Source: Halorussus marinus (GTDB lineage Archaea > Halobacteriota > Halobacteria > Halobacteriales > Haladaptataceae). Taken from it: DNA of 38,796 nt. The notes beneath the pieces were generated by a model, which was not told where the DNA came from, did no database searches, and saw only the letters and a program-made list of their open reading frames with translations. Positions 9,112 through 33,159 of this stretch are shown piece by piece. The stretch is from NCBI RefSeq assembly GCF_004765795.1, contig NZ_SBIV01000014.1, forward strand, positions 1 through 38,796. The letters run 5' to 3'. The stretch's first letter is position 1. Each line of letters begins with the position of its first letter. A program made the position numbers and the translations under genes.

Positions 9112-9402
9112 ATGTCTGGTCCGGATAGATACGACGATACGGCAGACGATCACGAACGGTTCGAAGCGGAATTGCTCGCTCAGGATCGGGATGCGCGGTC
9201 ACCATCGACGGCGGATCTTGACGACGAGACGGCCCGCCAGCTGGTTCGAGAGCTACTCGATGCCGGGACAGTCACACCGGTCGTCGACCAGCGGCTCCTC
9301 GTTCACGAGCCCAGCAACACAGCGTTCGAATCGATGCAGCAGCTCGCCGTCTTCCACACAGGCTGGACGGCCGCCCGGGACGCCGGCGAGGGTGATGGGT
9401 GA
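9112..9402 (+). CDS. Hypothetical protein
   Basis: Acidic ORF from ATG 9112 (MSGPDRYDD...); TGATG-coupled to the next gene. Confidence 0.7.
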   Translation: MSGPDRYDDTADDHERFEAELLAQDRDARSPSTADLDDETARQLVRELLDAGTVTPVVDQRLLVHEPSNTAFESMQQLAVFHTGWTAARDAGEGDG

Positions 9403-9728
9403 TGCAGCAGACGCTGGCCGGCTGTGCCTTCTGCGAGGCTCCATCCGGGATAGAGACTGGGATCGCCTACACGTGGGGGAAGGAAGAGCGGGTCAACCAC
9501 CCGATTTGCGTCGACTGTGCGATCCAAGAGACGCCGGATCCCGATGATCGTGATCACTACGCCTGTGACAGCTGTGGCCTCGTCGTCAACGCGCTCGCAG
9601 CGCTCACACGGTTTCGAATCGAACTCGGCCATCTCGAAGGCCCGATACAGGTCTGTGCGCGGTGTAGTCCAGGCGGGCCAGCAACGTACTGGACACGCGA
9701 CCTCGAGGCACACATCGTCTCTGACTGA
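9402..9728 (+). CDS. Small Zn-finger protein (four CxxC)
   Basis: CAFC, CVDC, CDSC, CARC; start overlaps the upstream stop. Confidence 0.8.
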   Translation: MQQTLAGCAFCEAPSGIETGIAYTWGKEERVNHPICVDCAIQETPDPDDRDHYACDSCGLVVNALAALTRFRIELGHLEGPIQVCARCSPGGPATYWTRDLEAHIVSD

Positions 9729-9884
9729 CCCGCCGAGCGGTCGTCGACGCGAGTGGTACGGCGACCACTGCGGGAGGGTCACAGTTGTCCGTAGCTGTCC
9801 CACCCCGCGAACTCAGCAGCGCTGGTTGTGTCGCTGTCTCGTTGCTCCGCTATCTTCAACAGACGGGCGCTCCTCGGGATGACT

Positions 9885-10235
9885 ATGGACTGCCCCGCGT
9901 GCGGGTCCCCCGTCACCCTCGAGGTCGGACCAGACCGGCCCCTGTCGACGTCGCTGTCCGACGCCGTCCTCGCAGCGGAAGAGGACGAGCAGATCGAGGT
10001 GACCCGCGATTGTTGGGACTGTGGCTGGCACGAAACGCGGGCGCTTCGCGTCGCATCGATCGACAGGACCGCCGGCGACGAGACTGCCGTCGAGCGAGCC
10101 GCACTCATCGACGAGATTGCCGATGAGCTCGCAGCGATCGGCTGTGTGGGTACGCTTGAGGAGACGCTGGCTGCAATCCGTGAGCAACGAGAAACCGACT
10201 CGGCGACGACCGATACGGACGACGCGGCGGAGTGA
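9885..10235 (+). CDS. Zn-ribbon hypothetical protein
   Basis: MDCPACG and CWDCGW, acidic helical tail; alternative start at 9879. Confidence 0.75.
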   Translation: MDCPACGSPVTLEVGPDRPLSTSLSDAVLAAEEDEQIEVTRDCWDCGWHETRALRVASIDRTAGDETAVERAALIDEIADELAAIGCVGTLEETLAAIREQRETDSATTDTDDAAE

Positions 10236-10241
10236 CTCGCA

Positions 10242-10571
10242 ATGCCTGATACAGAGGCCAACTATAATGTTCGTGAGCAAACCGGGAATCCCGAGCACGC
10301 ATCGGTCGACGATGTGGTTGACCTCGTGATCTACCGGGCGCAGAACCCGCGAACCGAGCACGAGGATGCACATTTCGATACGGCGGTCGCGGCTCTCGTC
10401 GACAGATACGGAACGGAGTCGGTCCGGACAGTCATCAACCGCATCCTCGTCGACGACGAGCCGTTCCGGACCGCCACGAACGGCCTTGAGATGCGCAACG
10501 TCGACGGCGTTCGGATCGGAACCGCAGCCAGCTGGTTTCTCGAGGAGCTAAACGCACAGGACGACCACTGA
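10242..10571 (+). CDS. Hypothetical protein
   Basis: 109-aa acidic ORF starting 6 nt after the previous stop. Confidence 0.7.
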   Translation: MPDTEANYNVREQTGNPEHASVDDVVDLVIYRAQNPRTEHEDAHFDTAVAALVDRYGTESVRTVINRILVDDEPFRTATNGLEMRNVDGVRIGTAASWFLEELNAQDDH

Positions 10572-10655
10572 GGGACCGGTTGAAAGGCCGCAGCGACAGG
10601 CCGTCGAGCCCCCATTTTTAACTCCTGTTCGTCCTATCTACCCGTCGAGGCCATA

Positions 10656-10913
10656 ATGGCACCCTCCACCCCGAGAGACTCAGATCCATCCCCCGATCTA
10701 CTCGTTGAAATCGTCGAGACACTGGAAGCCCACGGGCTCCCCACCGACTCGTATCAGCTCCACGACGCTGTTGACGTCGAGGCACTCGAGCAGCTTCTCG
10801 CATCCTCAGCCGGGGACGTGGAAGTCCGGTTCACCGTGGAGGGGATCCAACTCGCCGTCACCCACGACGGCGTCGATGTCCTTCTCGACGAGCCAGCCGG
10901 GGCACCGGATTAG
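10656..10913 (+). CDS. HalOD1 output-domain protein
   Basis: LHDAVDVEALEQLL...VEVRFTVEG...VTHDG is typical of HalOD1; TTTTAA upstream at ~10616-10621. Confidence 0.75.
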   Translation: MAPSTPRDSDPSPDLLVEIVETLEAHGLPTDSYQLHDAVDVEALEQLLASSAGDVEVRFTVEGIQLAVTHDGVDVLLDEPAGAPD

Positions 10914-11048: not shown

Positions 11049-11227
11049 TGAGTCCGCCAGGACGGTGAATGACCATCCGAGCGGCGCAGCCGGGTGGACA
11101 GGTGTGTCCGTACCGGCCCGCCCCGCTCGCCGCTGCCGCCCTCCGCGTCGCTCGCGACCGACCATTCCGGGCTGCCTGCCTGCGGTAGCGGGCGGGCTGC
11201 CGGGCTAAAGTGAATGTGCCCTCGGCG

Positions 11228-11500
11228 CCAGCGGGAAAGCGCGGGGGGTTGCGCGGCGTGGCTGCTCACCCCCCACGCTTTCTCCGCTGGCCGCTCGCTC
11301 CGGGCGGGTCGGCGCGCGGTGCTGGTTGGGGTCGCCGCACTCGGGCGCGCTCTCGCTCGCGCCCGGTAGGGCGCTCGCGAAGGCGCGAGCGAGAGCGCGC
11401 AGTCGGTGCTATCGGTCGTCGACGTCGTCGGAAAACCGCGATGTTAGGGGCATCGCGGTGGCGGCGCACGAGCGCCTTCAGTGGTATCTGGAGGATACCA
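11228..11500 (+). other. Stack of long hairpins upstream of the RPA-like gene, including leader H2
   Basis: Stem 11228-11290; perfect 19-bp IR 11345-11363/11382-11400; ACCGCGATG-TTAGGGG-CATCGCGGT 11435-11459; TGGTATC/GATACCA stem overlapping GGAGG just before the ATG. Confidence 0.75.
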
Positions 11501-12361
11501 ATGTCAAGTAACAACTCGAGTCGCAAGGTCGTTACGGTGGATGAACAGGCATTCGAACGAACCGAAGACGCCGGCGTCGACGAGGACGGCTTCAAGGTCG
11601 TCGACGACAAACCGGAGTTCCGAGCGACGGTTCAGCAGGAAAAGCAGGCGAAGGTGGATTCCAACCACCCAGACGGCATCGTCCAGGACTTCTCGCACCT
11701 GCCCCTCGCGCAGGAAGAGAAGATTCGCGCCCGGGAGGCCGAACTGGACCACATCAGCGCCCAGGCGGAACTCGGCACCCAAGACGGGCGGGCGAAGCGA
11801 ACTCGCAAGGTCGTCACCGAACGGCGACAGCGTAAGCGGGCGGAACGCACCCCGGACCGGACGGATCCGCGAGAGCGTCTCTCCCGGATGGAGCTGGCGA
11901 AGGTGAACCAGGAAGCAGACCGGATGGCACAGCGGCTTCGCACCGGTCACAGTCGGGCGGCCGTCTCGCGGGCGCTCGCAAAGCGGGTCGCCAAGGGGCA
12001 AGACATCACCAAAGCAGTGTTCGACACGATGGATGCACTCAAGGCGGCCCCCGGCGCCATCTGCCCGATCGAGGACGTCCCGGACGTGCAGACGGATGAG
12101 GTGAGCATCGAAGGAGAAGTCGTTCAGCTCTGGGATGCTTCCAGCCGGAAGATCGCTCAAGTGGGCTTGGTCGCGGACGACACCGGGAAAATCAAGTTCA
12201 CCTCGTGGCGAAAATCGGAGCCTGCCTTCGTCCAAGAAGGGGACACCGTCCGAATGCGGGCGGTTAAGAAGAACTGGTACGAGGGACGATGTTCACTCGC
12301 CGTGACCTACGACAGTATGATCGTCTTCCCAGAACGCGACCGCCGCTGGTGGGAGGAGTAG
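11501..12361 (+). CDS. Replication protein A-like ssDNA-binding protein (C-terminal OB fold)
   Basis: VSIEGEVVQLWD...QVGLVADDTGKIKFTSW...VQEGDTVRM OB-fold pattern; ATG 11501 with GGAGG. Confidence 0.85.
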   Translation: MSSNNSSRKVVTVDEQAFERTEDAGVDEDGFKVVDDKPEFRATVQQEKQAKVDSNHPDGIVQDFSHLPLAQEEKIRAREAELDHISAQAELGTQDGRAKRTRKVVTERRQRKRAERTPDRTDPRERLSRMELAKVNQEADRMAQRLRTGHSRAAVSRALAKRVAKGQDITKAVFDTMDALKAAPGAICPIEDVPDVQTDEVSIEGEVVQLWDASSRKIAQVGLVADDTGKIKFTSWRKSEPAFVQEGDTVRMRAVKKNWYEGRCSLAVTYDSMIVFPERDRRWWEE

Positions 12362-12382: not shown

Positions 12383-12592
12383 CGTGAGTGCCGGACCGGC
12401 CCAGGCCCCACCGCCCCACCCACCGCTCCGTGCTCGCTCCCGCTGGTCGCTGCGCGCGCAGCCACAACCTCAAGAACCGAGCTGAGATGTATGTCAGAAT
12501 TCGGGAATTCGCTAACCGCGTGTATCCGTCCGAAATAAAAAGCAACTACCGCCTAGAGAGGTTTTTAGGCTGACTAGAAACATAGAGGGAAT

Positions 12593-13930
12593 ATGGTTAA
12601 ATCGGGAGACGTGGATCAGCGGTGGCAGGATCTATTGCGTAATCCACGAGAAGAGGTCCATCGTGAAATCAAAAGCTGGCTTGATCTGTCTGATAATGTG
12701 GACAAGGCAAACGTAGCAAAAGCGATGCTCGCATTAGCGAATTCTGGTGGGGGTCAGATTTTGATTGGATATGAGGAGGTCGGTGAATCATGGGAACCGG
12801 ATCCATCTCGACCACATCCGATTGACCACTACGATCAAGATACGATTAATGGGATCGTTGAGAAGTTTGCTGAGCCCCAGTTTCACTGTGAAGTATACCA
12901 TATTGAACATCCAGAATCTGGTGAAGTCTTTCCAATTATCGATGTACCGGGAGACCATCGGGTGCCGATTCGATCAGACAGTGCTGGCCCTGAAGACCAA
13001 CACGTTACCTACAACACATATTATATTAGGCGGCCAGGGCCAGAAAGTGCAGCACCGAAGACAGGACGTGAGTGGGACGAATTGATTCGGCGGTGTGTCA
13101 CTGCCTCACGTGATGATCTGTTAGATCGAATGCGAACCGTACTGACGGGGTTCGAAAAAGGAGCAAGTGAAGAAGAGATTGATCCGCTGGATCAGCTTGC
13201 TTCGTGGACTGAGGCTATGCGGGAAGACTGGGAAGCCAACGTGATGGACGAGTACGGAAATATGGATAATTCACCCTATCGTCACGGGTACTGGTCATTT
13301 GCTTACAGTCTGGATTCTGAGTTTGATCAGCCATCTCTCTCTGAGTTCTTAGATCTACTACGGGAGGTGAAAGGTCATGAAACGGGGTGGCCGGCGTGGC
13401 TGATCAGCGAGGATCAGGTACATCCCCGCGATGAGACAATCGAAGGGTGGTATACCGGCGGAACATTCGATGACCCAGCGCACGCAGACTACTGGCGTGC
13501 ATCCCCAGACGGGATGCTGTTCTTGCTTCGTGGCTATCAGGAAGACAGCAAAGATGAACTTGAGCCAGGTACAGTTTTGGATTATATTCTCCCAATCTGG
13601 CGAGTCGGTGAATGCTTGCTACATGCGAAGCGGTTGGGGCGAGAACTCGGTGAGGAAAACACGTCGGTCACCGTGCAAGCCCGATGGACGGGACTAGAGG
13701 GACGAACACTGGGCTCAATTGAAAATCGCCGTGGACTTTTCCCTCCGATTGAAAGAGAATCACATCAAGCGACAGTTACGGCCAGTCAACGCTTCACTGT
13801 TCAAGATTTTGAAGACGCTCTACCGGAAGTGGTTGAGACCTTGACCCAACCGCTATACCAGATCTTTGATTTCTACGAGCCGCCATCCGATCTAATCCAG
13901 AATGAGCTGGACCGGATGCAAAGCCAGTAA
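12593..13930 (+). CDS. Schlafen/AlbA_2-domain protein
   Basis: N-terminal E..HREIKS...AKAMLALANSGGGQILIG AlbA_2 motif; lower GC; TTTTTA about 28 nt upstream (leaderless). Confidence 0.85.
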   Translation: MVKSGDVDQRWQDLLRNPREEVHREIKSWLDLSDNVDKANVAKAMLALANSGGGQILIGYEEVGESWEPDPSRPHPIDHYDQDTINGIVEKFAEPQFHCEVYHIEHPESGEVFPIIDVPGDHRVPIRSDSAGPEDQHVTYNTYYIRRPGPESAAPKTGREWDELIRRCVTASRDDLLDRMRTVLTGFEKGASEEEIDPLDQLASWTEAMREDWEANVMDEYGNMDNSPYRHGYWSFAYSLDSEFDQPSLSEFLDLLREVKGHETGWPAWLISEDQVHPRDETIEGWYTGGTFDDPAHADYWRASPDGMLFLLRGYQEDSKDELEPGTVLDYILPIWRVGECLLHAKRLGRELGEENTSVTVQARWTGLEGRTLGSIENRRGLFPPIERESHQATVTASQRFTVQDFEDALPEVVETLTQPLYQIFDFYEPPSDLIQNELDRMQSQ

Positions 13931-13935
13931 CAACG

Positions 13936-14685
13936 CTACTCTAGATGTTCATCCAATTCCCACGCACCTTCATCATCGTAATAGAAACCGGGATGATATC
14001 CGAACTGAGAGTTTGATAATGGTCGGAAAAGCGGTGTGAGTTGGTCACGGATACCGTCTTCATCGGACAGACTGAGAGGTGTGAGGCGCGAGGTGCGGTT
14101 AGGTTCAGGAAATGCTTCAACCCGGTCAACCTGCCGATGTTGGTCTATTGTCGCGTTCGTGAGATTTGTCCCACTGAGGATTGCATACACCTTCTCGCTG
14201 TGTTCATCAGGAAGGACGTCACGATAGAACTGGAGGACGGTGACGAGACTTAATTCAAGATCCTGTGAACTGACTGCATAGTCACAGTCGTATGAATGAC
14301 CGGTTGGATAGCAGAGCCCGCTCCCCCGGGCCTCATATATGCCAGTATCATACAGAGTTGCCACTGAACTCAGGTCTTTTCGATTCTCGTAGCGAGCGAC
14401 AATATGGTTCCATGTCGGATCCGCGTGTTCAAACAGTCTATCGGGCCGAAACGATGGTCGACACGTCGCGGGAACAGGCAGTTCCTCAAGTTCTGTGATA
14501 TCGACAAGACGCGATCCATCAAGAGCACTTTCAGGAACAATATGGAACAAGAGCTGTGGAATTGCATCCTCTGAATTAAGCATATCGAAGCGCTGAAGGT
14601 GGTATTCGCGATATAATGTCGACCGATCAACCGCCGGATATTCACGGTTGAGTTCATGGAGACGCCGAAGATGTGAATCACTCAT
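13936..14685 (-). CDS. Hypothetical protein resembling C-terminal domains of AlbA_2 proteins
   Basis: 249-aa lower-GC ORF with GGTGAGAGGGGG SD and ATATTTAT upstream; LLFHIVPESAL...GIYE...LFRPL pattern. Confidence 0.6.
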   Translation of the reverse strand: MSDSHLRRLHELNREYPAVDRSTLYREYHLQRFDMLNSEDAIPQLLFHIVPESALDGSRLVDITELEELPVPATCRPSFRPDRLFEHADPTWNHIVARYENRKDLSSVATLYDTGIYEARGSGLCYPTGHSYDCDYAVSSQDLELSLVTVLQFYRDVLPDEHSEKVYAILSGTNLTNATIDQHRQVDRVEAFPEPNRTSRLTPLSLSDEDGIRDQLTPLFRPLSNSQFGYHPGFYYDDEGAWELDEHLE

Positions 14686-14839: not shown

Positions 14840-14890
14840 GGTTTATTCCACCCATAATGGGTGAAGGATTCGCTGTACTGGCGAGTTCCT
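14840..14890 (+). promoter_or_regulatory. Leader H3 (divergent family member) upstream of tfb
   Basis: GGTTTATT, CACCCA-TAA-TGGGTG, then a second hairpin AGGATTCGCT/GGCGAGTTCCT. Confidence 0.45.
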
Positions 14891-14906
14891 GAACATGGTG
14901 AGAACG

Positions 14907-15827
14907 ATGACTACCAGAGACATCTACGAAACTGGCTTCGACGAAGACGTCCAAACAGAGTCGAGCGCTACCCAGTGTCCAGAGTGTGACGGCCGGGTCA
15001 CTACGAATGCGGTCGAAACGATCTGCGAGGACTGTGGACTTGTTATCGAGGAACAACGTATCGATCACGGGCCGGAGTGGCGGGCGTACGATGCAGACGA
15101 GCGCGAGCGAACAGGCGCACCACTCACTACAGCCCGTCACGATCGAGGCATCTCGACCGAGATCGGCCACGGAACCGACGCACACGGGAACGAACTCTCT
15201 GGTCAGAAACGCCGGCAGCTGGCCCGGATGCGACGTGAGCAGACCCGTGGTCGCTGGCGGTCCAAAGCGGAACGGAATCTCGCACACGGGTTGGGCGAGG
15301 TACGCCGGCTGGCGAGTGCGCTCGAGCTCTCTGAGTCGATTCGTGACCAGGCGTGCCAGCTCTTCCGGAGCGCTCAGAGCGAGGATCTGCTTCGAGGCAG
15401 ATCCATCGAAGCCATCGGTGCAGCGAGTATCTACGGTACCTGTCGATGTAACCAACACCCGCTTCTCCTCGAGGATGTCGTCGACGCCGCCCGAGTCGAG
15501 TCCGCTCGTGTCACCAACGCCTACCGAACACTGAATCGCGAATTAGAGCTCCCAGCACCACCAATGCGCCCGACGTCGTTCATTCCACGCCTGATCTCGG
15601 CGCTGGAGTTAGACCACGACATTCGTCGGCGCGCGAACGAACTCGCAGAACGCGCCGAGGGGACAACCCTCACGAACGGCTGTCAGCCATCGGGCGTCGC
15701 GGCCGCCTGTGTCTATCTGGCTGCCCAAGAGCAGGGCGCGTTGATTACCCAATCCACCGTCGCGTCGGCAGCAGAGGTGTCAGTCGTGACGCTCCGAAGC
15801 CGGCGAGACGAACTCCAAGCGATCTGA
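14907..15827 (+). CDS. tfb: Transcription initiation factor IIB paralogue
   Basis: Zn ribbon CPEC...CEDCGLV, IDHGPEWRAY, two cyclin repeats (LLRGRSIE; PSGVAAACVY); GGTGA SD before ATG 14907. Confidence 0.95.
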   Translation: MTTRDIYETGFDEDVQTESSATQCPECDGRVTTNAVETICEDCGLVIEEQRIDHGPEWRAYDADERERTGAPLTTARHDRGISTEIGHGTDAHGNELSGQKRRQLARMRREQTRGRWRSKAERNLAHGLGEVRRLASALELSESIRDQACQLFRSAQSEDLLRGRSIEAIGAASIYGTCRCNQHPLLLEDVVDAARVESARVTNAYRTLNRELELPAPPMRPTSFIPRLISALELDHDIRRRANELAERAEGTTLTNGCQPSGVAAACVYLAAQEQGALITQSTVASAAEVSVVTLRSRRDELQAI

Positions 15828-16090: not shown

Positions 16091-16960
16091 ATGACTGACC
16101 ACAACTCAGACCGAGAGGCGTTCCAACCTGTCGGGGAGGGCGCTCTGGTGCCGGACCCAGCGCTGGATCAGCCAGCAGACGGCCAGCCAAGCCGCCAGCG
16201 TGAAGCCTCGCATTCGGGTGGGTATCCGGACGGAACAACCGACACAGACCGATCCTGTGTCTCCTGTGGCGCATCGATCCCGGCGTCGCAACGAAAATGC
16301 CGGTTCTGTCTCGAACACGAACTTGACGGCGCGTCGGAGTCGGGTGCTGCGAGTTCCGAGCAGACACTGCGTGGTGTGATCCACTTCCTCGTCGAATCGG
16401 GGACGTTCTACGGCGCCGTGGCAAGGGGAGCAGCAGCAGCGACACTTCTCTCGTCAGGTCACGACCAGCCCATCGACGACTGTACGCTCATCTACGATCT
16501 CGACGACGAGCCCGCACCCCAGCTAACCGAGCGCTGGCCTACGCTCCCCGCTGCTACTGAGGTGACCGCAGCGGCTGGCGACGCGTTACTAACAGCGGCC
16601 CGTGAGCGGACAGCGTGGAACGAGAGGAGCGATCGTTCTCAGACGGAGATTCCACGCGTCTATGACGAGCGTGGCCAGGGAATTCGCGATGAGTCGTCCC
16701 TCGAGCACACGCTCGACGACAGCGATCAGCTGTGGATCGTCCCAGCAATCGCTGTGGAAACAGTACCCCGCGAAACGAAATCCTCCAGTACCAGAGCTGA
16801 AATCCCGACCGTAACAGCCCTCGAGTGCCAGCACTGTACGAAAGAAACAGAACATCGCTTCAGTACACGCGAGTCGCTCCCTGACGAGACCTGGACGGGC
16901 CAACCAATCTGGGAGTGCCAAGTGTGTGGCACAGGTCGCTACGGGCCTGCTCCCGAATAG
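16091..16960 (+). CDS. Hypothetical protein with N- and C-terminal Zn fingers
   Basis: CVSC...CRFC and CQHC...CQVC; TTTAAATA at ~16054-16061. Confidence 0.8.
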   Translation: MTDHNSDREAFQPVGEGALVPDPALDQPADGQPSRQREASHSGGYPDGTTDTDRSCVSCGASIPASQRKCRFCLEHELDGASESGAASSEQTLRGVIHFLVESGTFYGAVARGAAAATLLSSGHDQPIDDCTLIYDLDDEPAPQLTERWPTLPAATEVTAAAGDALLTAARERTAWNERSDRSQTEIPRVYDERGQGIRDESSLEHTLDDSDQLWIVPAIAVETVPRETKSSSTRAEIPTVTALECQHCTKETEHRFSTRESLPDETWTGQPIWECQVCGTGRYGPAPE

Positions 16961-17050: not shown

Positions 17051-17214
17051 GTCATAGCGGGCGTTCATTCGGCAGGTTCGCAGCGGCCTGTCTCTACAAA
17101 GCGGGGCGGGAACAGGGGGTGTGGGTAACGCACCGTGACATCGCCAAGTCCGGAAACGTCACGCCGACCACGGCCTGGACGCATCACCAGAGGTTCGATG
17201 AACTCGCTGTCTAG
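17051..17214 (+). pseudogene. tfb: Frameshifted C-terminal fragment of a second TFB
   Basis: VIAGVHSAG / FAAACLYKAGREQGVWVTHRDIAK...VTPTT aligns with PSGVAAACVYLAAQEQGALITQSTVA...VSVVT of the intact TFB; frame change near 17076; no 5' part. Confidence 0.75.
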
Positions 17215-17699
17215 ACGGGCCAGGTAGGGAGCGAGGGCGCTCCATTCTTCCAGTGGATCGCATCTAGCGCGGGCGGGAACTGCTGTAGTCGGTCATCGAG
17301 GACGGCGAGTGGGTGCGCATCGAGAAACGTCGCCTTGTGCCGATCAACCGGCGTGTCTTCGTGATTGAGTTGGATATGACAGGGCCCAAGGTCCGGATGG
17401 TCGGCATCTTGGTGGAATCCGAGCATCAGATTTCGGTCCGGTTCGACCCAGTTTATGCGGTAGTATTCGTGGTCGACGCCGGCGGGGTACCAGAAGCGAA
17501 TCTCCAGTCGTGCTGTCGCCGCGTCGTACGAGTCACTCAGGAACGTCGTCGGATCGACACCCGCGATGACGTACCGGGGTCGGCGTCGAGACGGGCGATA
17601 GCGGACCTCTTCACACCCTGGCTGGTTCGTCAATCGGTCGTGAACGTCGCGGAGGAGGGTCCGCTGTGTATAGCGGTCGCGACCGGCAAGAAAGATCAT
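17211..17699 (-). CDS. Putative toxin/partner of a haloarchaeal wHTH two-gene module
   Basis: 162 aa, co-oriented downstream of the wHTH gene; YRINW...GFHQD..HP..GPCH motif, reminiscent of TumE-like proteins. Confidence 0.6.
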   Translation of the reverse strand: MIFLAGRDRYTQRTLLRDVHDRLTNQPGCEEVRYRPSRRRPRYVIAGVDPTTFLSDSYDAATARLEIRFWYPAGVDHEYYRINWVEPDRNLMLGFHQDADHPDLGPCHIQLNHEDTPVDRHKATFLDAHPLAVLDDRLQQFPPALDAIHWKNGAPSLPTWPV

Positions 17700-17716
17700 T
17701 CTGTGAGAGAGGAGGG

Positions 17717-18575: not shown

Positions 18576-18603
18576 CGCGCCGGCGAGTGGTGAGGCGCTA
18601 CCG

Positions 18604-21122: not shown

Positions 21123-21129
21123 CACCGCG

Positions 21130-21145
21130 GTTGGAATATTCCAAC
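21130..21145. promoter_or_regulatory. Perfect 16-bp palindrome, likely operator for the metal ATPase
   Basis: GTTGGAATATTCCAAC directly before AAAGACATAT, 37-52 nt upstream of ATG 21182. Confidence 0.7.
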
Positions 21146-21181
21146 AAAGACATATCGAACTCCCGCTCCTACCGTGAGGTG

Positions 21182-24181: not shown

Positions 24182-24196
24182 TCCGAGGTGAACCAG

Positions 24197-25564: not shown

Positions 25565-25611
25565 GGTGTTGTTTCAGCGCCGGCGATGGGTGCCGGCGCA
25601 CACGCGCCGGC
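25565..25611 (+). promoter_or_regulatory. Conserved-loop hairpin leader H9
   Basis: GGTGTTGTTTC, GCGCCGGC-GATGGGT-GCCGGCGC-ACAC-GCGCCGGC; 26 bp identical to H7. Confidence 0.8.
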
Positions 25612-26248: not shown

Positions 26249-27199
26249 ATGATTTCGAAGGCCGGACTCGCCGTGCTTGACGCGCTGAGTACCGGCCGTG
26301 AAGCAACACCGGCGGAACTCGCGGCCGAAACCGGATATTCACGAGACCATCTGTACGACGTACTCAACGAATTGCTCGCAGCGGGATTGCTCACAGAAAC
26401 CCGTGGGTCCAGCAATCAGCGTCGTGTCCGCATCGCGGAACATCCAGTTACCGAAGCGTATCGAACGCTGCAGTCGGAGTTCAGCCACGTAGACTGGACG
26501 GAACTGCTCTCCCCAGCCACACTCCGCGTGTGTTGGTATCTCGATAGACCACGACACATCGCTGATATCGCAGACCGGCTCGGAATCACTCGACAAGGTG
26601 TCCACAGCGCGTTATCACCGCTCAAGCACCGAGCACTACTCTCCAGATCTGATTCGAAGTACGCCCTTCATGACGAAGTCTCGCCGCTGTTGGCGTTCGC
26701 CCGGGCTACTGTAGAGCACGAACATCGAGCCCGAGTCCGGGAAATCGCTCCCAGTGCCACGATCGCGTGGTGCGATCCGAAGCGAGCACTCGTTCGCCTG
26801 CAGACCGACGAGGATACGGACGCACTCCAAGCAGCTCCGGACTGGGAGATGACCGGACTGGGTCGGTTTACAGCGTATGGTCTACAGTTTTTCCTCGCCG
26901 GCGAGCCTCCGTTCTGGTATGCTCCGGACGAAGACCTAACGCCTGCTGAAGTCGTATGCCATACGCTCCTTCTGGATAGCGGATCTAGGCGGGTCAGCTA
27001 TTCGATGCTGCTGATCGAGGCGGAGGATATCGATCAGGAGACACTCGTCGAGACCGCACAGTGGTACGACCTGGAACCCACTGTGAAAGCGTTGTATCGG
27101 CCACTTCAGGGCGACTTCGACAGAACAGATGATCTGCCAGTCATCCTCCCAAAAAAGAACGAATATATGGCACTCAAAGACCAGTACGGAGTCGCGTAA
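26249..27199 (+). CDS. Double-HTH (MarR/ArsR-like) regulator
   Basis: Two wHTH repeats (TPAELAAETGYSRDHLY; IADIADRLGITRQGVH); TTTATA at 26219-26224, leaderless. Confidence 0.8.
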   Translation: MISKAGLAVLDALSTGREATPAELAAETGYSRDHLYDVLNELLAAGLLTETRGSSNQRRVRIAEHPVTEAYRTLQSEFSHVDWTELLSPATLRVCWYLDRPRHIADIADRLGITRQGVHSALSPLKHRALLSRSDSKYALHDEVSPLLAFARATVEHEHRARVREIAPSATIAWCDPKRALVRLQTDEDTDALQAAPDWEMTGLGRFTAYGLQFFLAGEPPFWYAPDEDLTPAEVVCHTLLLDSGSRRVSYSMLLIEAEDIDQETLVETAQWYDLEPTVKALYRPLQGDFDRTDDLPVILPKKNEYMALKDQYGVA

Positions 27200-27235
27200 C
27201 ACCAACCACGCAGTCTGGCGGAAAATTGCGATGGG

Positions 27236-28600
27236 TTAGATGATGCCGCCGATCACGAGTAGTCCGACGACGAGCAGCAGCGTCGCAACCACGCTCCCTC
27301 CAGCAAGCAGCTTGTTCTCCATCGCCTTCTCGTGGAGGGGCATCTCGGCGTACTCCTTGCGGAACGCGTCGAGGTTCTCCTCGTCGTAGAAGTACTTCCT
27401 CTTCAGCGCGAACCGTTCGGTCACCGCACAGCCGGTACAGACCGGCTCCCCTTCGAGCCGTTCGGTCTTGATGTGGGTGTCGCAGGCGATCGCCCCGCAG
27501 TTCGGACAGTAGGTGTACGTCTCGTCAACGCCGCTCGTCTCGCAGTGGACGCACCGATGGATGCCGTCCTCCAGAGTGACCCGTGAGGGGCCAGCAGAAT
27601 AGTATTCGTACGGATACGAGTACTCCAGTATCTCTGTCGTCTGCCGAACCTCAGGTAGATACACCGGCTCAATCGATTGCACTGAGATGTCCGAGAGATT
27701 CGGCTCACACGTCTTGTTGTACGTGACGTTATTGTCGCCGGTGTAGGTCACCGTCGTCGTGTGGTAATCCTGGAGGCGGTCAACAGCCCACTCCTTGTAC
27801 TCCGTTTGGGTCTGGCCGAACCGTCGTTCGTCGACGTCGTCGAATACCTCGGTAAACTGCCCGGTATCGAGGGGAACCGTCGCGTGGAAATTCTCGGTGA
27901 CCAGCGTCGCGACTTCGTCGTCGGCCACCTTCGGATGGCCGCGCTCAGCGTGGACAACGAACTGTGTGCGGTCGTTGATCCGGTGGATGACACCGACGGA
28001 GGTCTCAAAGACAGCGTTCGTGTCGGCGGTGATCGCAACCACCGGTCGGAACGTCACTTGCGAGTGCGGCACCGGCAGATCCGCAGCCTCGATGTTCTCG
28101 ATGTCGCGGAACGCCTCCTGGACAGGTGCGTCGACATCCGCCGCCGGGTCGTACGGCCGGAGCGTCTCGTCACAGAGGATCTCGATGCGGCCGTTGTAGA
28201 GATCGAGACCGATCTCGTCGGCGATCTCCCGGAGGTCCTCGCCGTCGATCAGCTCGATGGGAAAGGGATCATCGTTCCGCTGGAGCCGATCTGCGTACTC
28301 CTCGGCAGGGTTCGTAAATCGACCAGTGGTGGCGACCATCCCGCGCTTTGGACCGTCGAAGTCGAAGGTCGCGATGGCGGAATGGAGCTTCTGGACGACC
28401 GGCCGGCCGACCGTCCCGGTGTGCTTACACTCGACGATGATCGCACGCCGGGTGCCGTCGACGACCTCCTCCATGATGACGTCCCGTCCCTCGTCGGCCG
28501 TCCGCTCGGCCTGGCGGACGTTCTCGTAGCCGAGGTTGCGGAAGACGTCCTCCATCAAGTCCTCGAACTCGAATCCCGAGAGGTCGTCCAGTACAGCCAT
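27236..28600 (-). CDS. Mrr-family restriction endonuclease with Zn ribbons and C-terminal membrane helix
   Basis: LSGFEFEDLM..F..LGY...TADEGRD...VECKH...GMVATTGRFT; CVHC/CPNC/CDTH/CTGC; hydrophobic tail; start ATG 28600. Confidence 0.85.
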   Translation of the reverse strand: MAVLDDLSGFEFEDLMEDVFRNLGYENVRQAERTADEGRDVIMEEVVDGTRRAIIVECKHTGTVGRPVVQKLHSAIATFDFDGPKRGMVATTGRFTNPAEEYADRLQRNDDPFPIELIDGEDLREIADEIGLDLYNGRIEILCDETLRPYDPAADVDAPVQEAFRDIENIEAADLPVPHSQVTFRPVVAITADTNAVFETSVGVIHRINDRTQFVVHAERGHPKVADDEVATLVTENFHATVPLDTGQFTEVFDDVDERRFGQTQTEYKEWAVDRLQDYHTTTVTYTGDNNVTYNKTCEPNLSDISVQSIEPVYLPEVRQTTEILEYSYPYEYYSAGPSRVTLEDGIHRCVHCETSGVDETYTYCPNCGAIACDTHIKTERLEGEPVCTGCAVTERFALKRKYFYDEENLDAFRKEYAEMPLHEKAMENKLLAGGSVVATLLLVVGLLVIGGII

Positions 28601-28680: not shown

Positions 28681-28729
28681 GGTGTTGTTGTTCGTCCCGC
28701 AAGGGGCGCGGGACGACACATTCGTCCCG
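28681..28729 (+). promoter_or_regulatory. Conserved-loop hairpin leader H10
   Basis: GGTGTTGTTG, TCGTCCCGC-AAGGGGC-GCGGGACGA, then a second TCGTCCCG at 28722-28729. Confidence 0.8.
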
Positions 28730-28737
28730 GGTTACCG

Positions 28738-29184
28738 ATGAGTTCTGAGAGCAACAGCGAGATCGCTCCCGACAACTGGTGGTTGCAACGCCGAACAGAA
28801 GACGACCATTTCGTGTTCGCCTACGAGTTCTCGAAATCCGTCCTCTGCCACGTCCAGCAATCCTCGGACTGGCTGGTCCGGGTCGATCGAGCCGATGGGA
28901 CGATCCTCTTCAGCCAGCACGACCTCCGGTCCCGAGAGGCAGCATTCGCGCTCGCCGAGAGCGTCATGGAGCTCTGTACACTGCTCCATCGGGAGGTCGT
29001 CACGGAGCGGAGCCAAGCGCGAAAGCCGATGTACGTCGGGTCCCGACCAACCGGGACCGCGAGTGCGAGCAATCAGGAAGCCGGACGCGGTCCAGACACC
29101 GCCCGTCGACCGTTGGACTCCCGTCCCCGTCAGCCCCTAGAACGACCACGAGGTATGGGTCACTGGGAGGGTGGGTTTCGATGA
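28738..29184 (+). CDS. Hypothetical protein
   Basis: ATG 28738; ATGA-coupled to the next gene. Confidence 0.65.
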   Translation: MSSESNSEIAPDNWWLQRRTEDDHFVFAYEFSKSVLCHVQQSSDWLVRVDRADGTILFSQHDLRSREAAFALAESVMELCTLLHREVVTERSQARKPMYVGSRPTGTASASNQEAGRGPDTARRPLDSRPRQPLERPRGMGHWEGGFR

Positions 29185-29735
29185 CCGGCGGCCGAGCGTA
29201 CCGCGGTGAACGCTGTATGGGTGGACAGCTGGTGTACACGCCCGATGGCGACGTGCTGGACAAGCACCTCCACGTCCTACGCCGCGCCCCTGGCGGGTTC
29301 GACTGGGGACCACAGGCTGACGAGGCCCGCATCGATCAACTCGCGATCGCGCTGCTGGCCGATTCAGCGACGAAGAACATCGCGCTCGACCACTACAAGG
29401 AATTCGCGCGGTACCTGCGTGAACAGCTCGAGGGCGACGAGTGGCGACTCCCGACCAGCGACATTTCGGCCGATACCTGGTCGCGAGACATCGACGTGGC
29501 TGATGAGACGCCCTCACCGGAGGACGTCGACATCACGGCAGTCGATTTCGACGAGATGACCTTCGCGGTCGAGCGAGCGCTCTGCGAGAAACACGACATT
29601 AGCATCCACCAGAGCGTCGACGACCGCCGCGAGGAACTGGAAGACGCCCGCCAGGCAGTCCAATCAGAAACTACCGACTCGGAGGAGTCACAGACCGACA
29701 CCGGCGGGTTCGAGTTCCCCGCAGCTAGCCAGTAG
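29181..29735 (+). CDS. Divergent DUF6166-like protein
   Basis: RRAPGGFDWG...DQLAIALLAD aligns with NHSPTGFEWG...AQLACGLLLD of the next gene. Confidence 0.7.
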   Translation: MTGGRAYRGERCMGGQLVYTPDGDVLDKHLHVLRRAPGGFDWGPQADEARIDQLAIALLADSATKNIALDHYKEFARYLREQLEGDEWRLPTSDISADTWSRDIDVADETPSPEDVDITAVDFDEMTFAVERALCEKHDISIHQSVDDRREELEDARQAVQSETTDSEESQTDTGGFEFPAASQ

Positions 29736-29759
29736 GGACGGTGAGGGCGTTTCCGGCTC

Positions 29760-29805
29760 TGTTTGTAGAACCCCCGAGAGGGGTGCGGGGGTCACCACTC
29801 CCGCA
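29760..29805 (+). promoter_or_regulatory. Conserved-loop hairpin leader H11
   Basis: TGTTTGT, ACCCCCG-AGAGGGGTG-CGGGGGT; alternative stem TGCGGGGG/CTCCCGCA; 20 bp identical to H5. Confidence 0.85.
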
Positions 29806-29813
29806 ACGTACCG

Positions 29814-30500
29814 ATGAACGGGAACGCCCGACGCACCACGTCGAACGTAGTCCAGACAGAAGCGCTCGCTAACCGTCGCGACGACTCCGTCGAATACGTC
29901 GGCTTTCGCATCGACGGCCAGGCCGTCGTTCTGAATCTCTCCGAACACCAGCGTCTCACCCCGGATCGAAGTCTCGATCTGGTCAACCACAGCCCGACAG
30001 GCTTCGAGTGGGGATACGCTGGAAGCGGGCCCGCACAGCTCGCCTGTGGGCTCCTCCTCGACTACTACAACGACGCCCAGATCGCGAGAGAACACTACAT
30101 TGGGTTCCGGAATTGCGTGATCAGCCAGCTCGAGTGTGACGGCCCGGCGGCGTGCTGGCACCTCACCGGCGAAGAAATCGACGCGGCGATGGCGACGATC
30201 GCCGACGACGTCGTCGCCCTTCCCGACGGCGGGGGGCCGTCACCGACACTCCCCGAGAACTGGCGAACGGTCACTCGCCCTGACCGGCGAGTCTTCCAGC
30301 GGGCTGATCGCGACCACTACATCGTGCTTGGGGAGGGAACCGACGGCTGGCTGGCCGTCCTCTGTAATCAGGGCGATCGCGCCTATCCGGCACCCCTGGC
30401 GAGCCGGACGGTTTCGGACGATGCCGATGTCGAGCAGGCCATCCGGGCCCTGGTCGACGAGAGCAACAACCTCATCGAGCCACCGGAGGGGGAGTGCTGA
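29814..30500 (+). CDS. DUF6166-like protein
   Basis: NHSPTGFEWGYAGSGPAQLA motif (family name recalled). Confidence 0.8.
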   Translation: MNGNARRTTSNVVQTEALANRRDDSVEYVGFRIDGQAVVLNLSEHQRLTPDRSLDLVNHSPTGFEWGYAGSGPAQLACGLLLDYYNDAQIAREHYIGFRNCVISQLECDGPAACWHLTGEEIDAAMATIADDVVALPDGGGPSPTLPENWRTVTRPDRRVFQRADRDHYIVLGEGTDGWLAVLCNQGDRAYPAPLASRTVSDDADVEQAIRALVDESNNLIEPPEGEC

Positions 30501-30631
30501 TGGAGACAATTCGGCTGTTACGAGCCACCCACCAGCTGCTCGAACGCGGGGTCGAGGCGCTCGAGAAAATCGGTCGCGAACTGGAGCGGTACAACGACTG
30601 GCAAGAGCAGACTGACGGCACCGACTCGTGA
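30500..30631 (+). CDS. 43-aa helical small protein (not in the ORF track)
   Basis: METIRLLRATHQLLERGVEALEKIGRELERYNDWQEQTDGTDS; TGATG overlap upstream, GTGA overlap downstream, GGAGG SD. Confidence 0.7.
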   Translation: METIRLLRATHQLLERGVEALEKIGRELERYNDWQEQTDGTDS

Positions 30632-31293
30632 CTCAGACACGTTCTCCCGGCCAGCGGCGGAGTACCGGGTTCCAGTACACGCGCACTCCCGAGGGGTGCT
30701 CGTGTCCCATTCATCGCGACGGCCAGCCGGTCACGGCGCCGCTCGGCCTGCGGTTCGCAGAGCGCGTCCATATCGAATCGATCCCACGGCACGTCGCCGG
30801 CGCGATCTACGAAGCCCATCATTCCTATATGGACAGTGTCCCGCGGACGAACCTCGTTCATCACGGGCTCTGTTACCAGGACCAGCTACTGGGTGCGATT
30901 ACGTGGCGCTATCCACTGATTCGCTCGCTGGACTACGACGGCACGCGATACGAGGGTGACGAGATCGTCGAGGCAGCACGGATCTGCATCGGCGTCGACT
31001 TCCCGAATCTCGCCTCCGCCGCCCTCGCCCGGTCGATGGAACGATTCGTGCGTCGGCACGGTCGGCGGCGAGGCGTTCGCCTTCTGCTGACGTTCGTGCG
31101 AGCTGACTTCGACGGCTCGATGATTAAAGCGCTCAGAGACAAGGGCTGGCACTGCGCCGGGAAAACGGAACCCGGACAGGCAGGTAACCGGCCCGACAAG
31201 CAAATCCGAGAGCGGCCGAAGTGGCGGTTCCTCTGTGAAGTTCCTGATGAGTCTGAGCGGGAACAGTCCTCACTCGGACGGTGGGCTCCGTGA
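30628..31293 (+). CDS. Mom-like GNAT-fold DNA modification protein
   Basis: HHSYM...HGL...LLGAI...EAARICI...PNLASAALARS...LLLTF...GSMIKA...GW follows the Mu Mom/XF1762-like layout (HY, ELxR, PxNxES, SFAD, GxxYxAxxW/F). Confidence 0.6.
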   Translation: MTQTRSPGQRRSTGFQYTRTPEGCSCPIHRDGQPVTAPLGLRFAERVHIESIPRHVAGAIYEAHHSYMDSVPRTNLVHHGLCYQDQLLGAITWRYPLIRSLDYDGTRYEGDEIVEAARICIGVDFPNLASAALARSMERFVRRHGRRRGVRLLLTFVRADFDGSMIKALRDKGWHCAGKTEPGQAGNRPDKQIRERPKWRFLCEVPDESEREQSSLGRWAP

Positions 31294-31832
31294 CTACGAA
31301 TGCTCGTCTCGATGAGTTTGCAGCAGAGGAAGACTCGGACAACCAGCCGGAGCGCGATCCATCTGTAGTCGAGCGACTGTTGGACCCGATATCACCGGCC
31401 CAGGGGCTGCGACTCATCCCCGGCCAAGGTGACCCGGTGTACCTCCAAAACAGGGGAACTGAACGCTACCTGTTCCGGGATGCCCACGAGCGGTGGTTCA
31501 TCCTCCAGCCCTCGGCCAAGGAGTCGGTCGACGACTTCGTTCGCTGGGTGTATCTCCCCGACGGCAAACCCGCCGAGATTGCCCGGACAGCGATCCGTCA
31601 ACGGACGGTTCGCGGCTACCGGTACGTTCAGCGAAGCGGAGCTCCCGAGCCGGTTGGGACGACGGTGACAGCGATGTACGTCAGTGAGCCCTGGCCCGAC
31701 GATGTCTACGAGTGTGGATCCTGCGGAGCCGAGTTCGAGTCGCCCCATGCTCACGCCCTTCACTGCTGGGAGGACCATCCCTGGGTTCCGAACCCGGAGC
31801 AGGTTCGGCTACGCCGCTCCAGCACCGAGTAA
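31290..31832 (+). CDS. Hypothetical protein with C-terminal C2H2-like Zn finger
   Basis: YECGSCGAEFES....LHCWEDH; GTGA overlap with the upstream stop. Confidence 0.75.
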   Translation: MTTNARLDEFAAEEDSDNQPERDPSVVERLLDPISPAQGLRLIPGQGDPVYLQNRGTERYLFRDAHERWFILQPSAKESVDDFVRWVYLPDGKPAEIARTAIRQRTVRGYRYVQRSGAPEPVGTTVTAMYVSEPWPDDVYECGSCGAEFESPHAHALHCWEDHPWVPNPEQVRLRRSSTE

Positions 31833-31865
31833 CGACAGTGCGACAGTTTCCCGACGGTGGTTCGA

Positions 31866-31906
31866 TTAACCAACAGACAGCCGCTTCCTAGGTTAGTGTT
31901 GGTTAA
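31866..31906. repeat. Inverted repeat TTAACCAACA-N21-TGTTGGTTAA, copy 2
   Basis: Arms 31866-31875 and 31897-31906; same 21-nt spacing as copy 1 but a different spacer sequence. Confidence 0.8.
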
Positions 31907-31909
31907 CGT

Positions 31910-31986
31910 GGTGTTGTTGTTGCGCCCGGCAGAGGGGCGCAGGGCGCGAGACGATGCAGGCAGCCGTCGATGAGCGTTCCTGCGTC
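31910..31986 (+). promoter_or_regulatory. Conserved-loop hairpin leader H12
   Basis: GGTGTTGTTGTT, GCGCCC, AGAGGGGCG, GGGCGC; alternative stem 31936-31947 with 31974-31986, directly followed by the GAGGTGA SD. Confidence 0.8.
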
Positions 31987-31998
31987 GAGGTGACTACG

Positions 31999-33159
31999 AT
32001 GAAAGACCCAGAGTCGAGAACCATCTTCGCAGGCGTCGATGGACGTACCGACACCGAACTACCCGAGTGGTATCGTCAGCGTCACGGCGGCAAAGACACC
32101 GTGAGCTTCGCTGAGGCGATCCGCGACCTCCCGCAGGCCGTCGAGACGACCGTGGCGTACCAGAATCCGTACACCGACGAGTGGGTCGAGACGGAGCGGT
32201 TCAACGCGCTCGTCGAGCCGAGTCGCGCTCGAGAGCAGGCCCGTGAGGAGGACGCCGAAACGGATTCTTTGTTCCATATTCCGACCGACTCGTACTCGAT
32301 CATCAACCCGGTCGACGTCTACGGCCCTCTGGAGGAGGTCCTTCGGGAGGAGACTATCGACCGAACGCCGCTGGGTGACGTGATGTTCGGCGAGATTCGT
32401 CGCTACCGGGGCGGCGGCGAGGTCCATATGGACATCATGTTCGACGGCCTCGAAGTGCGCCTTCCCGGCCGGTCGGACCCGATCACGATGGGCGTCACGT
32501 CGGGCTACGACTTCTTCGGTGAGCACGCCGTCTACGTCGAGGGGTTCGCCCAGGACGGGTACTGTTCAAATACGATGCGTTCGCTCACCGACAAGGAGGT
32601 CATCAAACACGTCGGCGACGTGCGGAACTTCCGCACCTGGTGGGAGGAGCTTCTCGCACAGGTCGAACTCGTCGCCGACGACCTATTCGAGTTCATCCGG
32701 GACGCCCAGGACATCGACCTCGACTTCTCGGAGCTCCCGTTCACCGTCACGGAGTTTTACAGTCTTCTGGGCTTCCCGGACTACCTGGCCGAGCGCGCTG
32801 CGAGTGATGCGGAGGCCAACGCGACCTCCCCCGTCGAGATCGATATGTGGACGCTGCATTCCGGCGCCACGTACGCGCTCACCCACTTCTTCCAAGGCAA
32901 GGAGGGTGCGTCGCTGGACGGCTACGTTCGCACGGCCAACGACATCCTGTTCAACCCGGAGGGCACCATCGAGCGCGTCGAACGCGCTTACGAGGAGGAG
33001 CTGGAGACAGACGGCGATGACGGGTCGCAGGCGTCGCTCGCCGGCGAGCGCGCGCTCGCGAGCATCGAGCGCATCAGCGACGATCTGCAAGAGAAGGTCA
33101 ACCAGTTCGAGGAGCGCGAGGACGCGCTTCGTGAGCGGTTCCAAGATGCCATGAGCTGA
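31999..33159 (+). CDS. DUF932/DUF945-like plasmid/phage protein
   Basis: IPTDSYSIINP, SGYDFFG...YCSNTM...IKHVGD resembles DUF932 (SDRY..VQN; NSHDG; CxN; RH.G); SD at 31987-31993. Confidence 0.6.
   Translation: MKDPESRTIFAGVDGRTDTELPEWYRQRHGGKDTVSFAEAIRDLPQAVETTVAYQNPYTDEWVETERFNALVEPSRAREQAREEDAETDSLFHIPTDSYSIINPVDVYGPLEEVLREETIDRTPLGDVMFGEIRRYRGGGEVHMDIMFDGLEVRLPGRSDPITMGVTSGYDFFGEHAVYVEGFAQDGYCSNTMRSLTDKEVIKHVGDVRNFRTWWEELLAQVELVADDLFEFIRDAQDIDLDFSELPFTVTEFYSLLGFPDYLAERAASDAEANATSPVEIDMWTLHSGATYALTHFFQGKEGASLDGYVRTANDILFNPEGTIERVERAYEEELETDGDDGSQASLAGERALASIERISDDLQEKVNQFEEREDALRERFQDAMS

Follow-up and report, generated by a model that had tools for sequence, protein, structure and literature searches.

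A haloarchaeal plasmid gene array with a recurrent upstream hairpin: a possible establishment regulon with single-stranded DNA promoters

Gene content of the window

The DNA studied here, called the window, is the entire 38,796-nt contig NZ_SBIV01000014.1 (C14) of Halorussus marinus, and its GC content is 60.5% as against 66-69% in the chromosome-like contigs. Between positions 9112 and 33159 lies a row of small co-oriented genes, the array, next to genes for a coupling ATPase and a primase, and most array genes are preceded by a hairpin element of about 35 nt that consists of a T-tract, a GC stem, a 7-nt RANGGGY loop and then a G. The array is no chance arrangement, as its order and strand recur over related loci. 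We discuss it as a possible establishment regulon of plasmids with a type IV secretion system (T4SS), switched by hairpin promoters in single-stranded DNA (ssDNA).

A preliminary description, which drew on the letters of the window alone, had likened about 25 co-oriented genes to the leading regions of bacterial conjugative plasmids. There are 32 open reading frames (ORFs) in this interval, 28 on the forward and 4 on the reverse strand. Twenty-four are backbone-type genes, all on the forward strand, so the count stands, though the row is interrupted by the eight others, which are inserted or lie on the opposite strand (an AlbA gene, a low-GC ORF, a toxin-antitoxin-like pair, a helix-turn-helix (HTH) regulator with a heavy-metal P-type ATPase, a MarR-like gene and an Mrr nuclease). 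The gene labels were likewise upheld by Pfam, PHROG, the ESM Atlas and a fold search. TFB (E = 3e-34), two DUF6166 genes and the coupling ATPase (T4SS-DNA_transf) pass their Pfam cut-offs. The RPA OB-fold falls short of its cut-off (E = 8e-4), and the Haloferax volcanii orthologue is arCOG RPA1; the Mom-like gene also falls short (5e-5) and matches PHROG Mom-like at 1e-8. For the primase, the AEP fold is supported by a Z of 15.8 to LigD-Pol/Prim-PolC. The last array gene in the window has no Pfam match; in the ESM Atlas it scores 0.96 and shares 211 of 256 features, and all 30 matches are DUF932 clusters. This DUF932-like gene was found in 104 of 401 Halobacteria genomes and on 54 PLSDB plasmids.

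Links to anti-defence are confined to the Mom-like gene and to an ArdC gene that relatives carry downstream, outside the window's sequence (ArdcN above its cut-off; PHROG anti-restriction, 7e-11); PHROG gave no anti-defence annotation on the unassigned array genes besides Mom. The earlier suggestion that many of the unassigned genes are anti-defence factors finds no further support. The low-GC inserts at 6607-8586 and 12593-14685 (the 659-aa ORF, and the Schlafen/AlbA-domain gene with the 249-aa ORF) occupy variable slots and may be defence cargo. The Mrr-family endonuclease at 27236-28600 has a Zn-finger and a hydrophobic C-terminal tail.

Both window ends are copies of one 126-nt end of a 940-bp insertion sequence (IS; contig C32), whose other end adjoins the 3' end of a VirB4-like gene on contig C15 of the same genome, which carries DUF1931, xseAB and the tra operon. 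Because of the shared IS at this 3' end and of the gene order in relatives, C15 probably precedes the window, and, since the IS joins the window to a tra-bearing contig, the window is most likely the continuation of a T4SS plasmid. The IS copy at C15:27477-27602 sits in the last VirB4-like codons, i.e. between virB4 and the gene for the type IV coupling protein (T4CP), and may have impaired transfer in the source strain. A second copy truncates the P-ATPase gene at the right end of the window.

Proteins 99.8-100% identical to those of the window are encoded on NC_006394.1 (Haloarcula marismortui) and NZ_CP031314.1 (Halobellus limi). Judged by its genes, the window plasmid belongs to the known pHdsl9-3-related family of haloarchaeal T4SS plasmids, described as 132 plasmids in seven families with a core of Orc1/Cdc6, SSB, TFIIB, an ArdC-like protein and a VirB4 and VirD4/HerA T4SS cluster, and with ZntA cargo (Ni et al. 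2026, PMC13532300). RPA, TFB and T4CP of this core lie within the window, VirB4 on C15, and ArdC and orc1 in the near-identical relatives; an ArdC gene belonging to the window's own copy was not found in the draft assembly. The ZntA cargo is shared as well. In its main text, PMC13532300 uses none of the words relaxase, oriT, leading or promoter, and it describes there neither the co-oriented array as a regulon nor the hairpin element nor the nuclease module treated below. A second, pJ7-1-like array with a T4CP gene lies on contig C7 of the same genome (83853-116223), and a further partial array bearing the same elements lies at 155396-164002 of that contig.

Linkage of the array to transfer genes

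Linkage to transfer genes in related replicons had been set beforehand as a check of the preliminary description. Twenty-five DUF932-like loci were chosen for long contigs and spread of identity, 66-80 kb were fetched around each, and the set was extended by two annotated plasmids and by the second copy on C7. T4SS genes (VirB4, VirB6 or T4CP) occur within 80 kb in 21 of the 25 loci, which bears the linkage out; four loci have none inside that distance.

Two arrangements account for most loci. Type A (14 loci, 79-100% identity) has the order DUF1931, xseAB, tra, T4CP, primase, array, DUF932, DUF6610, one small gene, ArdC, a further two genes and orc1, with T4CP upstream in 12/14 and ArdC a few kb past DUF932, also in 12/14. 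The SSB, anti-restriction and DNA-modification genes typical of leading regions thus have counterparts in RPA, the Mom-like gene and this ArdC. In type B (nine loci, 61-67%), T4CP lies upstream on the opposite strand (8/9), RPA, TFB and DUF932 follow, the tra operon comes after them (8/9), and there is no ArdC. What survives this rearrangement, which inverts T4CP and relocates the tra operon, is a core of T4CP, RPA, TFB and DUF932; ArdC, the Mom-like gene and the AEP primase gene belong to only one of the types. Integron-like cassette shuffling was ruled out because gene order is conserved. The array runs on past DUF932, by up to five genes in close relatives; where the window has metal-resistance cargo, the array of relatives picks up again with DUF6610, ArdC and another three genes.

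Two loci at 34-35% identity hold no other gene of the set. These distant DUF932-like genes (L079, L082) lie on large contigs, and the lack of plasmid-backbone genes there, together with a match to PHROG 13083, suggests proviral copies. In most type A loci a histone-like DUF1931 gene and those for exonuclease VII (xseA, xseB) stand directly before the tra operon (L001:35984-37463); this enzyme, which acts on ssDNA, could have a role in transfer processing. In type A plasmids the position after T4CP is taken by either of two unrelated AEP primase systems, the prim-pol of the window at 4548-6563 and, in pJ7-1, a PriS-like gene and its partner (L003:3867-6274).

The array could instead be unrelated to transfer, as a regulon induced by stress or replication (e.g. 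by DNA damage) or a decaying block, whose elements are RNA terminator or processing leaders and whose proximity to tra merely follows backbone order. The four loci without T4SS genes, their absence from the H. volcanii stretch described below, the Mrr defence nuclease inside the array and the lack, in the literature we searched, of conjugation for any haloarchaeal plasmid all fit this view. It is nevertheless improbable, as the group of RPA, TFB, DUF932 and T4CP outlasts a rearrangement in which T4CP is inverted and tra relocated, and ArdC, SSB and DUF932 are typical transfer-establishment genes.

A conserved hairpin ahead of array genes

The element occurs once per gene, 24-65 nt before start codons. 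In its strict form it has eight copies on the forward strand of the window, all before array genes, and two chance-like ones on the reverse strand, where shuffled sequence gave a mean of 1.1 (maximum 4 over 100 shuffles); its density in chromosome-like contigs is 2.4 per 100 kb. Across 2.3 Mb of related loci there are 224 forward and 42 reverse matches. The strict pattern is present in 27 of 47 genomes of the same order and in 2 of 254 others of the phylum, and a reversed control gave none in the 47. By a rule based on sequence only, with no pairing required, 159 of 251 array gene starts have the element. Before tfb, the primase gene and three further genes the copies are degenerate; the one before the primase gene exists in three variants with 1, 2 and 3 mismatches by eye, all A·C on the forward and hence G·T on the reverse strand. 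The window had no Rfam match, and the literature searched yielded no account of this element, nor any of a leading region in haloarchaea.

The two arms, compared over 75 non-redundant copies, are paired at 5.69 of 8 positions; swapping arms between gene families lowers this to 4.37 +/- 0.12 (maximum 4.78). As pairing exceeds these swaps, the stem is conserved in structure while its arm sequences vary; the arms covary and the loop is conserved. The swap supersedes an earlier arm permutation that was partly circular. A first structural guess of two tandem sense-strand hairpins (CCCC-GAGA-GGGG) was dropped once the register with a 7-nt loop revealed the covariation.

Mismatches in the stem, read on the forward strand, are A·C in 21 cases and G·T in 5 (16 and 3 distinct), that is, wobble pairs on the template strand. 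The A·C excess survives removal of any single family, and its ratio was exceeded in 0.15% of swaps; we regard the bias as moderate. A naive count of G·T and A·C (68 vs 27) was set aside as largely compositional (shuffles 1388 vs 814), and a within-family test (11 vs 9) was uninformative. The right arm also pairs downstream, in 37 of 75 copies (null 17.7, maximum 28), and this second hairpin holds 40 G·T against 7 A·C mismatches (null 7.6 vs 8.0), which favours the RNA strand, and has a sharp 5' edge at the last base of the loop. One G-rich arm is therefore common to a template-strand DNA hairpin and to an RNA-like sense-strand hairpin that begins at the loop-stem junction. The opposite biases of these overlapping hairpins are not readily explained by one shared compositional bias, and the simplest reading of the sequences is that transcription would start at the loop-stem junction. 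The centre of the T-tract lies near -20 from the junction G, compared with -28 for H. volcanii TATA boxes, and the consensus is a short GC stem with neither promoter boxes nor TATA in it. That the RNA strand carries the strongest strand signal suits an array unrelated to transfer; a model of RNA leaders only would leave the covarying stem with the opposite wobble bias unexplained.

Hairpins of this kind might also be ssi-like priming signals on ssDNA that is entering or has been displaced, which the plasmid AEP or a host primase would read for blockwise conversion to double-stranded DNA (dsDNA), their position before genes being secondary. An AEP primase adjoins the array, and RSF1010, where RepB' primes at a GTG beside a hairpin, is close in kind: its ssiA and ssiB share with the element a short ssDNA hairpin, a pyrimidine-rich 5' flank, GTG and a nearby AEP primase (PMC8567376). 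Frpo, moreover, serves both transcription and priming, to judge from a title cited in PMC9849209. We nonetheless hold priming to be quite improbable. As PMC8567376 describes them, the RSF1010 sites are two copies at oriV and not one per gene, while the archaeal elements persist in type B, where 7/7 maps show no primase gene near T4CP; the element is moreover tied to start codons and overlaps the RNA-type hairpin.

Apparent silence of the array in resident cells

The H. volcanii plasmid pHV4 holds an orthologous array at 18-55 kb. In the differential RNA-seq table of PMC4983044, which lists 1851 transcription start sites (TSSs) for 4040 genes genome-wide, none of the 21 annotated forward-strand array genes of pHV4 has a gene-start TSS (18 of the 21 have orthologues in the gene set used here), and each of ten non-array genes that are interspersed with the array or flank it does have one. 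These vegetative cells thus give no sign of the constitutive expression that the preliminary description took to argue against an establishment role. The table places one internal sense TSS and nine reverse-strand TSSs in or beside array genes. The latter span NC_013966.1 20602-48546, with one strong site (30319, coverage 312), and antisense silencing may add to the repression. Upstream of the TSSs in this table the element core was not found, save for one chance chromosomal match.

RNA-seq counts of array genes are low. In the table of PMC7749143 (Makkay 2020), in which four array genes have no row, seven pHV4 array genes have 0-16 counts over 12 samples, and tfb9 has 0-5 right behind a cargo gene with 128-842. 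Such near-zero counts behind an active cargo gene suggest that the element blocks read-through into tfb9. The supplement of Laass 2019 contains none of six locus tags sought, and public RNA runs, which gave mixed-organism contigs possibly with DNA, were uninformative.

Linkage and silence are equally accounted for by an establishment regulon controlled on dsDNA in the manner of CUP/ArdK or Reg576, in which the element would act as a palindromic operator-promoter, with the plasmid TFB as its possible reader, and the array is repressed in resident cells and zygotically induced, the sense hairpin being an RNA leader only. CUP-regulated leading regions of IncN plasmids have repressor-controlled dsDNA promoters. 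TFB is a core gene that is itself preceded by the element, and a palindrome that resembles a dsDNA site stands near several array genes. This palindrome, TTAACCAAC-N-GTTGGTTA, has a spacer of variable sequence that is 23-24 nt long in 87 of 102 distinct copies. Further copies lie on C7 (12), C13 (2) and C15 (1) of the genome, the half-site is absent from 3.2 Mb of chromosome-like contigs, and type B loci nearly lack it; it looks like a plasmid-specific dsDNA protein site, for partition or a regulator. Precedents are Reg576 with EGeRS2, and EGeRS1, which blocks read-through though its transferred strand is non-template (PMC8708921). Even so, we rate control on dsDNA as unlikely, if a serious contender: arms that vary and covary around a conserved loop are the reverse of a dimeric-repressor operator, the T-tract does not sit where a TATA box would, and the two plasmid types share no candidate repressor.

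Candidate relaxase and origin of transfer

What brings ssDNA to archaeal T4SSs, a relaxase or otherwise, is stated to be unknown (2025 review PMC12282955; PMC3548315). The C-terminus of the coupling ATPase (aa ~980-1330, nt 3045-4097) is predicted to form a winged HTH (wHTH) followed by a PD-(D/E)XK nuclease and an extra beta domain (predicted local distance difference test score 92). The best fold matches of the nuclease module have Z scores of 9.3 and 8.9 (range 7-9) and include AF1548, PaqCI and Hjc. H106, D136, E151 and E153 of the module fragment are at least 90% conserved among 45 sequences, and its relatives are mostly parts of long proteins (352 matches). Pfam gave no sequence-level match to PF13814 (Replic_Relax), and Foldseek gave no match at E<0.001; weak TraI rows with a root-mean-square deviation above 25 were disregarded. 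PDB profile searches with alignments of the primase and of DUF932, and also with ArdC, returned nothing.

The predicted fold makes this module a candidate for a fused archaeal relaxase. MOBC relaxases (PF13814; pAD1 TraX) have the PD-(D/E)XK fold, and they share with the module the order of wHTH and nuclease and an association with the coupling protein, whereas here the module is fused to the coupling ATPase, has an extra beta domain and lacks a Pfam match.

The origin of transfer (oriT) had been expected just beyond the DUF932-like gene, and this gained no support. In type A the array continues there, and in type B there is little room before the tra genes; a search for conserved non-coding DNA past the last array gene in type A and between DUF932 and tra in type B found none. 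A site beyond DUF932 or beyond the last array gene was set aside for want of such a block. An oriT at the T4CP end is more likely, since conserved spacers and the nuclease-bearing T4CP lie at that end and nothing of the kind was found at the far one. Each type A primase system is followed by its own repeat-bearing spacer, that of the pJ7-1 subtype differing from that of the window. A second candidate is the leader of rpa; in one type B locus it makes up the only ~0.6 kb between T4CP and rpa. The rpa gene has conserved structured non-coding DNA on both sides, with a GC-rich trailer at 12390-12470 after a T-rich terminator. Folding z-scores of the leader that pointed to the reverse strand (7/8 as RNA, 8/8 as DNA; 12 shuffles) were discarded as a composition-biased measure, the mismatch count being neutral. 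With oriT at the T4CP end and hairpins on the template strand, the incoming strand would have to enter 3'-first or the array would enter late.

Table 1. Features of the window (1 to 38,796); strand as given in the analysis
Feature	Positions	Strand	Basis or remark
IS end	1..126	.	identity with contig C32
VirD4/HerA-like coupling ATPase, 1466 aa	108..4508	+	Pfam, predicted fold
Degenerate element before primase gene	4508..4541	-	by eye
AEP-fold primase-polymerase, 671 aa	4548..6563	+	fold match
Low-GC inserted ORF, 659 aa	6607..8586	-	without family match; in two near-identical loci only
Spacer with short direct and inverted repeats	8694..9055	.	oriT/origin candidate 1; 80-85% identical in two relatives
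Strict element	9056..9103	-	loop pyrimidine 9079
Five small genes: 96 aa, DUF7558, Zn-ribbon, 109 aa, HalOD1	9112..10913	+	
Multi-hairpin non-coding rpa leader	11100..11500	.	candidate 2 for oriT, single-strand origin (sso) or promoter; conserved in both plasmid types
RPA, OB-fold ssDNA-binding protein	11501..12361	+	
Low-GC cargo: Schlafen/AlbA-domain gene (+), 249-aa ORF (-)	12593..14685		
Degenerate element before tfb	14841..14893	-	
Plasmid TFB	14907..15827	+	core gene in both plasmid types
Zn-finger protein, function unassigned	16091..16960	+	TATA-like box upstream in place of hairpin element
Palindrome TTAACCAAC-N(23-24)-GTTGGTTAA	16981..17021	.	fixed spacing, plasmid contigs only
Inserted pair, 162 aa and DUF7342	17211..18268	-	toxin-antitoxin-like arrangement
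Four backbone genes: 62 aa (at 18604), 126 aa, DUF6735, 94 aa	18566..20311	+	with elements
Elements before genes of this block	about 18566-18600 (degenerate), 18832-18870, 19259-19312		
Cargo: HTH regulator, heavy-metal P-type ATPase	20373..23545	+	
Five backbone genes: 140 aa, 166 aa, DUF7568, DUF7567, 194 aa	23618..26204	+	
Strict elements	about 24111-24185, 25570-25610		degenerate ones before 23666 and 25142
MarR-like/HVO_2833 gene (+), Mrr-family endonuclease (-, 27236-28600)	26249..28600		
148-aa gene, two DUF6166, 43-aa gene, Mom-like acetyltransferase, 180-aa gene	28684..31832	+	
Strict elements	about 28684-28730, 29760-29806		
Second TTAACCAAC palindrome	31866..31906	.	just before the strict element 31913-31985
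Strict element before DUF932-like gene	31913-31985		
DUF932-like protein, 386 aa	31999..33159	+	core gene in both plasmid types
Metal-resistance cargo: peroxiredoxin, MerA-like reductase, NikR-like, NicO-like, ArsR, IS-cut P-ATPase	33202..38796	.	

Discussion

Bacterial leading regions (F, ColIb-P9) share with the array co-oriented ssb, anti-restriction and DNA-modification genes beside transfer genes, repeated upstream hairpins and, as far as the pHV4 array shows, silence in resident cells (PMC11541004, PMC9849209). The archaeal array differs in pointing away from the candidate relaxase gene and in having oriT only as candidates. Template-strand hairpins upstream of establishment genes are also common to the element, at the moderate strength given above, and to the ssDNA promoters Frpo and ssi; in the latter, -35 and -10 boxes are rebuilt in a long stem, whereas the archaeal element is short, has a conserved 7-nt loop, comes once per gene and contains no such boxes (PMC11541004, PMC9849209). 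In Bacillus pLS20 and p576, EGeRS1 and EGeRS2 likewise are repeated elements before establishment genes, including ardC, with no constitutive promoter and with blocked read-through; as described in PMC8708921, EGeRS1 consists of near-identical repeats of 400-750 bp, while in the archaeal element structure is conserved more strongly than the sequence of the arms, and EGeRS2 consists of repressor-controlled dsDNA promoters. The string 'archae' does not occur in the main text of the survey of bacterial leading regions PMC11541004. Neither a per-gene hairpin with the traits of an ssDNA promoter nor a coupling protein fused to a nuclease was found in the literature searched.

We consider it likely that the array is a transfer-linked establishment regulon, by whichever route it is controlled, and give a probability of a little under one half (about 0.47) to its being switched by ssDNA hairpin promoters in place of TATA promoters of the usual kind. 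In such a regulon the T-tract would end upstream transcripts in the dsDNA state, nothing would initiate, and the array would stay silent. The wHTH/PD-(D/E)XK module of the coupling ATPase would nick the plasmid, and the template (reverse) strand would be exported. In the recipient, the incoming strand would fold each element into a stem with an open 7-nt loop, and RNA polymerase, perhaps helped by the plasmid TFB, would initiate at the loop-stem junction. The 5' hairpin of the transcript, with its G·U pairs, may stabilise the RNA and free it from the ssDNA template. RPA, the primase and the Mom-like and ArdC products would then shield the DNA and convert it, and once it is double-stranded the array would shut off. 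We find it doubtful, though not far-fetched, that all of the following holds together: true haloarchaeal ssDNA conjugation through a PD-(D/E)XK relaxase fused to T4CP, the first archaeal ssDNA promoters, TATA-less and loop-initiated, and an oriT at the T4CP end with no covalent 5' pilot, so that the template strand could enter 3'-first.

Several observations weigh against ssDNA switching or its parts. Plasmid transfer, its ssDNA intermediate and expression of the array after transfer are steps that we infer. The swapped arms already have an A·C share of 0.66 from column composition (observed 0.81), fixing the loop at 7 nt cuts the mismatch bias to 17 vs 10, hairpin energies favour the reverse strand in only 37 vs 26 copies, and the copies are related and not independent. 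The rpa leader shows no strand bias in its mismatches (13 vs 15 distinct). We know of no archaeal hairpin promoter without TATA. For the reverse strand to enter 5'-first, oriT would have to lie at the far end, in which no conserved sequence was found. The nuclease match is at fold level only, and the Replic_Relax atlas score is 0.79. An Mrr restriction nuclease lies inside the array on the opposite strand and recurs in 11 related loci, and MOBC elements show no leading-region enrichment for anti-defence genes, going by the data of PMC11541004.

The silence of pHV4 is open to other readings as well. Its stretch from 1 to 90 kb lacks tra genes and has two broken array genes, and for these reasons the silence may come from decay. 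Array-gene counts overlap those of orc (5-20) and of a cargo protease (2-30), and chromosomal rpa2 (12-59) is low too, in the table of PMC7749143, whose setting, mating by cell fusion, differs from T4SS transfer. Two TSSs internal to the cargo gene upstream of tfb9, 229-251 nt before it, bear on the apparent block of read-through.

Conclusions

From this locus come a candidate relaxase, two candidates for oriT and a predicted ssDNA promoter whose start site is predicted as well. So far, ssDNA promoters have been shown only in bacteria. About one in four of the Halobacteria genomes sampled has the DUF932-like marker, and a copy of the array exists in the model H. volcanii. If the array is indeed switched by ssDNA hairpins, ssDNA-gated gene expression would extend to the archaeal transcription machinery, about 15 uncharacterised families would become candidates for screens of archaeal counter-defence and establishment, and a conjugation tool for haloarchaea may become possible. 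With 3'-first entry, each promoter would arrive just ahead of its own gene, the reverse of the bacterial geometry.

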